64,000 nucleotides of DNA, taken from positions 5,162-69,161 of the forward strand of contig JAKIVX010000004.1 of the NCBI GenBank assembly GCA_022750335.1, read 5' to 3'. Every line of letters starts with the position of its first letter. Position 1 is the first letter of the stretch. The notes under the pieces were generated by a model. It was not told the DNA's origin and ran no database searches. It was given only the letters and a program-made list of their open reading frames with translations. Below are positions 48,970 through 58,233 of this stretch, one piece after another. A program made the position numbers and the translations under genes. The stretch comes from Thermoplasmata archaeon (GTDB lineage Archaea > Thermoplasmatota > Thermoplasmata > Lutacidiplasmatales > UBA184).

Positions 48970-49047
48970 AATTCGGCCCCGCTTAGAACGGCAGTCCGAC
49001 TCCGAGTATCGGGCCGGCGTCGAGTGCGCCGGCGGGGCAGATTCAGG

Positions 49048-49130
49048 TGCCGGGGCCAGGATTTGAACCTGGGTACTCCTGCGAGAGCAGATCTTGAGTC
49101 TGCCGCCTTTGGCCGCTCGGCTACCCCGGC
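49048..49130 (-). tRNA. tRNA-Leu (anticodon CAA), class II, intron-less
   Basis: Minus strand reads GCCGGGGTAGCCGAGCGGCCAAAGGCGGCAGACTCAAGATCTGCTCTCGCAGGAGTACCCAGGTTCAAATCCTGGCCCCGGCA. It has a 7-bp acceptor stem, anticodon loop CTCAAGA, a long variable arm and T-loop TTCAAAT. CCA is not encoded. Confidence 0.93.
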
Positions 49131-57731: not shown

Positions 57732-57784
57732 TGTCGGTCAACCTCGGCGAACGCTTCGGCCGGGCAAAGATGCGGGGGGCCGGA

Positions 57785-57819
57785 GTTCCCGGCCGCCGGT
57801 CGACGTGACCGGCCGGCCC
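57785..57819 (-). other. 35-nt tRNA intron at T-loop position 59/60 of tRNA-Leu(UAG)
   Basis: The intron is GGGCCGGCCGGTCACGTCGACCGGCGGCCGGGAAC. The T-stem acts as the outer helix. TTCA(54-57) pairs with GGGA in the intron (2 Watson-Crick, 1 G-U, 1 mismatch). Bulges are AA|G and AC|T, with a strong intron-internal helix. Confidence 0.7.
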
Positions 57820-57867
57820 TTTGAACCGGCGTATGCCCTAGGCAACAGGGTCCTAAGCCCTGCCTCG

Positions 57868-57894
57868 GTAGCCCCACCGGCGTTTGCCGGCGGA
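57868..57894 (-). other. 27-nt tRNA intron in the D-loop of tRNA-Leu(UAG), about position 21/22
   Basis: The intron TCCGCCGGCAAACGCCGGTGGGGCTAC contains an 8-bp hairpin. GGCC (nt 19-22) pairs with GGCT (nt 46-49) as the 4-bp central helix (3 Watson-Crick, 1 G-U). The flanking 3-nt bulges are AA|T and AC|C. Confidence 0.65.
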
Positions 57895-57945
57895 TTGGCC
57901 GAACTGGAGCACCCCCGCACTGGTATCATGGAATCGCCCGCGGAG

Positions 57946-58052
57946 TAGCCCCGGCAGGAGTTTCGGACCACGGGCGGGCCCACCCCCGCGGCATTCGAAC
58001 CTGCGTCGCGAGATCCAGAGTCTCGCATGATTGGCCACTACACTACGGGGCT
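57946..58052 (-). tRNA. tRNA-Gln (anticodon CUG) with a non-canonical T-loop intron (73 nt after in-silico splicing)
   Basis: The spliced sequence is AGCCCCGTAGTGTAGTGGCCAATCATGCGAGACTCTGGATCTCGCGACGCAGGTTCGAA+TCCTGCCGGGGCTA. It has an A1-U72 acceptor AGCCCCG/CGGGGCT, anticodon loop CTCTGGA and T-arm GCAGG-TTCGAAT-CCTGC. Confidence 0.85.
57960..57993 (-). other. 34-nt tRNA intron at T-loop position 59/60 of tRNA-Gln(CUG)
   Basis: The intron is TGCCGCGGGGGTGGGCCCGCCCGTGGTCCGAAAC. TTCG(54-57) pairs perfectly with intron CGAA (nt 29-32). The 3-nt bulges are AA|T and AC|T, and the T-stem is the outer helix, which is canonical BHB geometry. Confidence 0.8.
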
Positions 58053-58076
58053 ACGGCGCGAGCCAGCGGTGCGCGG

Positions 58077-58085
58077 TTGATAAAC
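58077..58085 (-). promoter_or_regulatory. TATA box candidate for the tRNA-Gln/tRNA-Leu unit
   Basis: Minus strand gtttatcaa. The tttatc core ends 27 nt upstream of tRNA-Gln position 1. Confidence 0.45.
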
Positions 58086-58233
58086 ATTCCTCCGAATTTC
58101 GACCCTCTGGTCCCGTAGCTCTAAGTCGAACGACCTCGACAGAACTCACGACCTCCGAAGCGACGGGGGCTGCTCCCCGCCGGTCGAACGAACCCCTTGG
58201 AAGGGGGCATTACCTTACCGGTGCGATTGGTCC

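Follow-up and report, generated by a model that had tools for sequence, protein, structure and literature searches.

What does a cell make from a locus in which the two matching halves of a tRNA acceptor stem, GCGGGGG (57918-57912) and CCCCCGC followed by A (57778-57771), are encoded 148 nucleotides (nt) apart? The locus lies on the minus strand of a 64-kb stretch of contig JAKIVX010000004.1 from a Thermoplasmata archaeon, and this whole stretch of 64,000 nt is referred to below as the window. In the raw window neither ARAGORN nor Rfam gives any call at 57771-57918. The original prediction, made by reading the sequence, was that a tRNA-Leu(UAG) gene is interrupted here by two inserts (57868-57894 and 57785-57819), that their removal leaves an 86-nt class II tRNA, and that each insert can form a motif resembling the bulge-helix-bulge (BHB) of archaeal introns. 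The distance between the acceptor halves and the insert coordinates hold to the base, ARAGORN recognizes tRNA-Leu(tag) solely after double removal, and all the helices and bulges proposed for the two inserts are present in the sequence. The locus very probably represents a functional tRNA-Leu(UAG) gene with two short, protein-spliced introns at tRNA positions 21/22 and 59/60.

Organization of the gene and its predicted spliced product

The arrangement given here relies on the sequence, on ARAGORN applied to the spliced form and on orthologs; sequences are those of the minus strand read from 57918 to 57771.

57771..57918, minus strand: pre-tRNA-Leu(UAG) gene, 148 nt, three exons and two introns
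57895..57918, minus strand: exon 1, 24 nt (GCGGGGGTGCTCCAGTTCGGCCAA); acceptor 5′ strand, U8 and G9, D-stem 5′ strand CUC, D-loop through A21
57868..57894, minus strand: intron 1, 27 nt (TCCGCCGGCAAACGCCGGTGGGGCTAC); in the D-loop, tRNA position 21/22
57820..57867, minus strand: exon 2, 48 nt (CGAGGCAGGGCTTAGGACCCTGTTGCCTAGGGCATACGCCGGTTCAAA); D-stem 3′ strand, anticodon arm CAGGG-CUUAGGA-CCCUG, long variable arm, T-stem 5′ strand, T-loop U54-A59
57785..57819, minus strand: intron 2, 35 nt (GGGCCGGCCGGTCACGTCGACCGGCGGCCGGGAAC); in the T-loop, tRNA position 59/60
57771..57784, minus strand: exon 3, 14 nt (TCCGGCCCCCCGCA); U60, T-stem 3′ strand, acceptor 3′ strand, discriminator A73

With both inserts removed ARAGORN calls a tRNA-Leu(tag) of 86 nt, and with neither or just one of them removed it returns no tRNA call. 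In the predicted spliced molecule the acceptor stem measures 7 bp, the D-stem 3 bp, the anticodon stem 5 bp and the T-stem 5 bp; the variable arm is long, the T-loop reads UUCAAAU, and the molecule carries the conserved tRNA bases U8, A14, G18G19, A21, U33, U54U55C56, A58, C61 and A73. The anticodon UAG, the variable region of 15 nt that contains a 4-bp stem, the 3-bp D-stem and A73 place it among class II leucine tRNAs, and its architecture parallels that of the window’s own tRNA-Leu(CAA) and of intron-less orthologs described below; C13 and C22 do not pair with each other. It is from the alignment with these intron-less counterparts that the introns are numbered as A21/C22 and A59/U60. The gene is followed directly by TCTTT, so that the 3′ CCA is not encoded. 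The intron-less tRNA-Leu(CAA) gene (49046-49130, minus strand) apparently encodes the initial CC of the 3′ CCA, or more of it (GCACC).

Several other types of interrupted gene were considered. The three exons are contiguous, colinear and encoded on one strand within 148 nt, unlike those of tRNA genes that are split or permuted. Group I and group II self-splicing introns, which run to hundreds of nucleotides around a ribozyme core and mostly interrupt the anticodon loop, were rejected, since the inserts measure merely 27 and 35 nt, form simple hairpins in the D-loop and T-loop, and no Rfam intron family is detected there. Likewise, a guide-RNA role similar to that of the tRNA-Trp intron was rejected because neither intron contains a box C (RUGAUGA) or a box D (CUGA).

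The whole 64-kb window was scanned on both strands for BHB-like inserts, the criteria being a central helix of 4 bp in which one mismatch was allowed, bulges of 3 nt and flanking helices of 3 bp. In all, 4,409 candidate inserts were listed, and 22,530 constructs with single or double removals were passed through ARAGORN. The sole two-intron solution in 64 kb was tRNA-Leu(tag) with exactly these two inserts, and ten dinucleotide-preserving shuffles of the window yielded zero junction-spanning tRNAs in the same BHB-removal scan. The precursor is also more stable than its shuffled versions (z = -3.3; 0 of 200 shuffles equally stable). The two-insert tRNA-Leu solution is thus not due to chance. 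The scan revealed no further hidden intron-containing tRNAs in the window, being itself incomplete: three perfect inner-helix pairs were required, and for this reason the true intron of the neighboring tRNA-Gln gene was missed.

BHB motifs at the two junctions

Intron 1 adopts the full hBHBh′ motif, composed of a 3-bp outer helix YUC/GAG, bulges AA|N and AN|C, a 4-bp central helix and an 8-bp hairpin with a 4-nt loop; in the window the central helix is GGCC/GGCT, the bulges are AA|T and AC|C, and the hairpin has its 8 bp. In the motif of intron 2 the T-stem serves as the outer helix, the bulges are AA|N and AY|U, the central helix is represented by the 3 bp UUC/GRR, and an interrupted hairpin of 11 bp follows; in the window the central segment is TTCA/GGGA, in which one pair is G-U and one an A.G mismatch, and the bulges read AA|G and AC|T. 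For both introns the register of the predicted cut sites is the same, after the second base of each 3-nt bulge, while the motif is strict for intron 1 alone.

Conservation among related loci

The host of this gene is an uncultured Thermoplasmatota archaeon nearest to Candidatus (Ca.) Lutacidiplasmatales (order UBA184 in GTDB). GC content is 64-70% throughout the window, the exact sequence of the adjacent metallophosphoesterase is found solely on metagenome contigs of the Joint Genome Institute (JGI), and the relatives of the neighboring class I aldolase (74-92% identity over 27 related loci) come from soil and peat metagenome-assembled genomes (MAGs) of Thermoplasmata/Thermoplasmatota, with one Bacillota contig besides. 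The closest relative by aldolase is AcS1-45 (JAKIVW01, locus L003), a genome listed in the paper on Ca. Lutacidiplasmatales, the supplement of which gives it as GTDB o__UBA184 (PMC9287336); tRNA introns are not mentioned in that paper (PMC9287336).

The gene is found at the same locus and with the same neighbors in 26 Thermoplasmata genomes out of 28 related species-level loci, the distance from tRNA-Leu to the shared aldolase gene in these 26 orthologs being about 1.5 kb and reaching about 4.7 kb. At the remaining two loci, L010 and L028, the pair formed by tRNA-Leu and the upstream tRNA-Gln is absent, and on account of L010 (JASHYQ01) the synteny is not universal. L010:6600-10369 (JASHYQ01, Thermoplasmata) displays altered gene order downstream of the aldolase, with an open reading frame (ORF) of 900 aa. 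L028 (JAKATP010000002.1) is labeled as Bacillota, and its class I aldolase is 59% identical to the archaeal one of the window, which could be a matter of horizontal transfer or of a binning error.

Comparison with orthologous tRNA-Leu(UAG) loci, suggested along with the original prediction as a way to see whether the intron positions are conserved, demonstrated that they are, with exons nearly invariant and introns variable in sequence at preserved structure. All figures on identity, variable columns and pairing given below refer to the ungapped alignment A1 of 21 sequences from 21 genomes:

Exons: mean pairwise identity 98.5%, 5 of 86 columns variable
Intron 1: mean pairwise identity 61%, 23 of 27 columns variable
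Intron 2: mean pairwise identity 68%, 27 of 35 columns variable

The variable exon positions are two D-loop columns in exon 1, otherwise invariant, and three columns in exon 2; exon 3 is invariant. Intron 1 is 27 nt long in 24 of the 26 orthologs, 33 nt in one and missing in one, and intron 2 is mostly 35 nt, with few cases of 32 or 36 nt.

Imposed on this alignment, the BHB structure leaves 94.6% of cells paired, and 13 pairs are altered on both sides. None of 500 shuffles matched this combination of pairing and double changes, and sliding the partner strand by 1-3 columns reduced pairing to 36-54%. The central helix of intron 1, GGCC with GGCY or GGYC, is paired in 21/21 genomes, and seven of the eight pairs of its hairpin covary. 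For intron 2 the pairs U54-A/G, U55-G/A and C56-G are kept in 21/21, A57 stands opposite G or A in all 21 genomes so that the fourth central pair is never formed, and six of the 11 hairpin pairs covary. The outer helices are paired in 98% (intron 1, YUC/GAG) and 100% (intron 2, T-stem) of cases, and the inner hairpins in 93.5 and 89%, respectively. Both 5′ bulges start with exonic AA, and the first base of the 3′ bulge is A in 20/21 genomes for intron 1 and in 21/21 for intron 2. Unguided prediction by RNAalifold retrieved the complete hBHBh′ of intron 1 as well as the T-stem and hairpin of intron 2.

These data bear on the supposition that the locus is a decaying tRNA pseudogene which acquired two insertions and fell out of use. 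Such a supposition could draw on the silence of standard detectors, on the atypical C10 and on the unpaired C13 and C22. A pseudogene is, however, not expected to hold its exons at 98.5% identity across 21 species while the adjacent aldolase protein fell to 77-92% and the inserts diverged freely, nor to preserve the insert lengths and to maintain the helices by compensatory changes; the mature-form sequence is, moreover, retained in intron-less relatives. Given this contrast between exons and inserts, we regard the pseudogene explanation as effectively refuted.

Natural alleles lacking one or both introns

The spliced forms predicted above have natural counterparts encoded in DNA. At L017:15481-15601 (minus strand; JAKABH01, WH2.bin150) intron 1 is missing and intron 2 is kept, and the sequence reads GGCCAA|CGAGG, that is, exactly the junction predicted for intron 1. 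In a single-gene neighbor-joining tree of the aldolase, which carries no support values, L017 is nested among intron-bearing lineages, and this position gives a weak indication that intron 1 may have been lost there secondarily and precisely.

A metagenome scan for alleles devoid of intron 2, or having an intron no longer than 30 nt, yielded two loci on contigs of 59% GC (Ga0326727), L036:3601-3806 and L037:8339-8543. Both contain the same Gln-Leu tandem with a tRNA-Leu(UAG) free of introns, the T-arm of which reads GCCGGTTCAAA|TCCGGC and so reproduces the predicted junction TTCAAA|TCCGGC. ARAGORN assigns both as tRNA-Leu(tag), the Rfam tRNA model scores them at 49-51 bits against a threshold of 29 bits, and they are identical to the spliced product of the window at 73-74 of 87 positions. 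Substitutions that distinguish them are partly compensatory, the anticodon stem CAGGG/CCCTG being opposed to CAAGG/CCTTG and the D-stem pair U11-A24 to C11-G24. Position 17 is altered in concert with positions 11 and 24, and this co-change fits a model in which G23-A24-G25 is paired to YUC of the D-loop before splicing and to C10-U11-C12 afterwards.

A further possibility to be weighed against these alleles is that one insert alone is an intron and the other persists in the functional molecule as an enlarged D-loop or T-loop. The imperfect central helix of intron 2, unpredicted by RNAalifold, would agree with it. Against it, ARAGORN finds no tRNA with either insert kept, and L017 (devoid of intron 1) together with L036 and L037 (devoid of both) present the mature form without the inserts; the 59/60 geometry is also conserved in tRNA-Gln, there with a perfect 4-bp central helix. 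The interaction between the D-loop and the T-loop is universally conserved in tRNA structure, and a hairpin of 35 nt in the T-loop would disrupt it. Retention of either insert is therefore hardly credible, and excision of both remains the preferred interpretation.

Since at L036 and L037 the tRNA-Gln has its 59/60 intron and the tRNA-Leu has none, the tRNA-Gln intron appears to predate both introns of tRNA-Leu: the former is shared with a more distant lineage, and the latter are confined to this clade. Compared by eye, intron 2 of tRNA-Leu and the tRNA-Gln intron are alike only in the 3′ CCGRRAAC, which is not informative on the origin of intron 2 because base pairing with the T-loop already constrains this segment. 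The presence in related genomes of alleles with two, one and no introns offers a small and clean system for the study of gain and loss of tRNA introns.

The upstream tRNA-Gln(CUG) gene and the putative promoter

57946..58052, minus strand: tRNA-Gln(CUG), precursor of 107 nt, mature form of 73 nt; ARAGORN on the spliced form
57919..57945, minus strand: Gln-Leu spacer, 27 nt, no TATA-like box
58076..58088, minus strand: promoter-like box AATGTTTATCAAC, with TATA-like core TTTATC ending 26 nt upstream of tRNA-Gln position 1

The tRNA-Gln intron (57993-57960; 34 nt, position 59/60, bulges AA|N and AC|U) has strict bulges, a perfect 4-bp central helix UUCG/CGAA and an inner helix with a one-base bulge. 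After its removal ARAGORN calls tRNA-Gln(ctg) at 31/31 loci, including L036 and L037. In the raw window both ARAGORN and Rfam place a tRNA at 57980-58053 (29.5 bits, barely over the threshold), where the acceptor stem is paired with intron sequence and the 3′ half is wrong.

The box found before tRNA-Gln is kept as AAYGTTTATCAAC-like in most related loci, and its position along with the likeness to archaeal B recognition element (BRE)/TATA sequences points to a putative promoter. The spacers between the two tRNA genes are about 25-40 nt in all loci, and the conserved upstream box is found in none of the Gln-Leu spacers at the loci compared. From the short spacer devoid of such a box we infer a dicistronic Gln-Leu transcript with three introns; tRNA-Gln and tRNA-Leu are, as judged by this arrangement, probably co-transcribed.

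Proposed maturation pathway and splicing endonuclease

Archaeal splicing endonuclease (EndA) reads the BHB independently of the mature tRNA domain and cuts after the second bulge base, whereupon RtcB joins the ends (PMC4090602, PMC5829648), and all four cut sites predicted here fit this rule exactly. We propose that a single promoter would probably serve tRNA-Leu and the tRNA-Gln(CUG) preceding it, that each intron and its flanking exon bases would fold into a BHB in the precursor, that EndA would cleave after the second base of each 3-nt bulge, and that an RtcB-type ligase would join the three exons. In the course of maturation G23-A24-G25 would swap its partner: in the first BHB it would form the outer helix with YUC of the D-loop (positions 16-17a), and in the mature D-stem it would pair with C10-U11-C12. 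Because CCA is not encoded, it would be added as the last step.

Some observations weigh against the interpretation of the locus as a functional gene with two protein-spliced introns and have to be considered together. Position 10 is occupied by C, where G is usual, yet the intron-less orthologs have the C10-G25 pair as well. In intron 2 the central helix consists of just three standard pairs, beside which a conserved mismatch (A.G or A.A) adjoins the 5′ bulge, and it is absent from the RNAalifold prediction; enzymes of the alpha′2 type are described as cutting strict BHB motifs only (PMC5829648, PMC4033280). EndA was not detected by phmmer in the window or in 30 related loci when M. jannaschii EndA (identical to PDB 1a79) was compared with all ORFs of at least 60 aa; no EndA record was found in the same assembly as any tRNA-bearing locus, and none was linked to the order UBA184.

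What is available on the enzyme comes from database searches that started from EndA proteins of solved structure and went on from their Thermoplasmatota matches; these searches recovered two large EndA families, of 350 aa and 354 aa, from high-GC soil genomes labeled “Thermoplasmata archaeon”. The 350-aa family has one member from the Lunaplasmatales genome JAKIWT01. The 354-aa family occurs widely in soil and peat, and one of the genomes with it shares its accession series with the SPRUCE peat genome of locus L005; the DNA flanking this family is slightly nearer to the window in tetranucleotide composition, which weakly favors this family. Both have the two-unit alpha′2 architecture with the catalytic Tyr-His-Lys triad in the second unit only, and both are devoid of the CSL/L1 (crenarchaeal-specific) loop and of the ASL/L2 loop of archaeal Richmond Mine acidophilic nanoorganisms (ARMAN). 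Nor does the system belong to the Thermoproteales type, as the closest genomes are Thermoplasmata, outside the TACK group, and the EndA families are without the L1 insert of about 11 residues known in Sulfolobales alpha subunits. Since neither family is linked to a UBA184 genome, the enzyme can be assigned only by inference.

Protein P0184 was considered as a Lutacidiplasmatales EndA by its accession series and was rejected, because the supplement of the Ca. Lutacidiplasmatales paper puts it in the only Lunaplasmatales genome studied there. Protein P0016, of 254 aa, is an EndA-like protein of the high-GC Thermoplasmata type. Relative to its 350-aa relatives it is missing about 97 residues, from the last part of the first unit through the linker to the greater part of the N-terminal subdomain in the catalytic unit, and it may represent a genuine short form or an artifact of gene calling or assembly.

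In place of a plain alpha′2 enzyme, the inserts might be excised by a lineage-specific endonuclease of broad specificity, either an extra EndA paralog or a loop-bearing variant. This option is worth considering because, according to the literature, enzymes of the (alpha-beta)2 or epsilon2 type or with inserted loops accompany introns that are non-canonical or multiple (PMC5829648), and also because of the lack of a link between any recovered EndA and a UBA184 genome. However, the best 120 database matches per query and the best 150 representatives related to Thermoplasmata EndA were two-unit proteins of about 330-400 aa or fragments, both high-GC soil families are without the CSL/L1 and ASL/L2 inserts, and intron 1 as well as the tRNA-Gln intron, with their strict bulges and 4-bp central helices, should suit any archaeal EndA. 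A specialized enzyme is on balance unlikely. The broader proposition that the whole order, Ca. Lutacidiplasmatales of the Cluster II Euryarchaeota, fixed non-canonical introns, a two-intron tRNA among them, under a plain loop-less alpha′2 EndA only, is evenly balanced in our estimation.

If the EndA of this clade is a plain alpha′2 enzyme, the locus would permit a direct test of the limits that enzyme type sets on intron position. If it proves true that this enzyme acts alone, the order would be an exception, provided by nature, to the accepted rule that multiple and non-canonical introns co-evolve with (alpha-beta)2, epsilon2 and loop-bearing enzymes, and would indicate that an alpha′2 enzyme allows the spread of strict BHB introns into the D-loop and T-loop.

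There is also a practical side to these genes. ARAGORN and Rfam miss tRNA-Leu(UAG) and misplace the 3′ half of tRNA-Gln; consequently, tRNA counts, used as a criterion of MAG quality, and the decoding capacity deduced from them will be wrong unless intron-aware tools are used, and this error affects an abundant lineage of acid soil and peat. tRNAscan-SE 2.0 looks for non-canonical introns by default, so that the gene may already be annotated in some deposited genomes.

Comparison with known systems

In Thermoproteales, BHB introns are commonly found at non-canonical positions, with as many as three in one gene, and such introns are also described in Thaumarchaeota, Korarchaeum, Nanoarchaeum, ARMAN and Methanopyrus (PMC4033280, PMC8450103, PMC3239211, PMC5829648). 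According to reviews, where the endonuclease of Euryarchaeota is alpha4 or alpha2, their introns occur singly and at the canonical position only (PMC4090602), the lineages with multi-intron tRNAs amount to a handful that includes no Thermoplasmatota (PMC4033280), and Cluster II Euryarchaeota have exclusively alpha′2 EndA, non-canonical introns being cut solely by (alpha-beta)2 and epsilon2 enzymes (PMC5829648). The remark made for this locus at the outset, that tRNAs with several introns are seldom found except in a few orders of archaea, agrees with this picture (PMC4033280, PMC4090602). No tRNA genes with two introns or with non-canonical introns were found for Thermoplasmatota in the searchable literature, and a conserved two-intron tRNA in this phylum extends the known distribution of multi-intron genes.

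The multi-intron tRNA genes of Thermoproteales (Pyrobaculum, Thermofilum and Caldivirga), so far as the work of Sugahara et al. (2008) is relayed in PMC4033280 and PMC8450103, belong to hyperthermophilic crenarchaeal hosts, whereas the host considered here is a mesophilic Thermoplasmatota archaeon of acid soil with 68% GC. Thermoproteales possess (alpha-beta)2 EndA with the crenarchaeal-specific loop and relaxed hBH, HBh′ or BHL motifs; in the lineages related to this one alpha′2 enzymes without the loop are found, and the motifs are strict or near-strict hBHBh′. The position 59/60 is a known site of BHB junctions in Thermofilum pendens and Cyanidioschyzon merolae (PMC3218864), and the likeness to their permuted tRNAs consists in this same T-loop junction with the T-stem as the outer helix of the BHB (PMC3218864); their genes, however, are circularly permuted, while here the exon order is normal and the junction accommodates a hairpin intron of 32-36 nt.

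Pre-tRNA-Glu of Methanopyrus kandleri is likewise euryarchaeal and has more than one intron, a canonical one and one in the D-loop (PMC5829648). In that organism EndA is of the (alpha-beta)2 type and the D-loop intron is a relaxed HBh′ poorly cut by alpha′2 (PMC5829648), in contrast to tRNA-Leu(UAG) described here, which has no intron at 37/38 and the D-loop intron of which is a full hBHBh′. ARMAN-2 (Ca. Micrarchaeum) represents a lineage once placed deep in Euryarchaeota and has many non-canonical tRNA introns (PMC3239211), but its EndA is a three-unit epsilon2 protein with a specific loop, an architecture not encountered among the Thermoplasmata relatives recovered. Thus, the kind of feature revealed at this locus is a known one, while the lineage harboring it, Thermoplasmatota, is unexpected.

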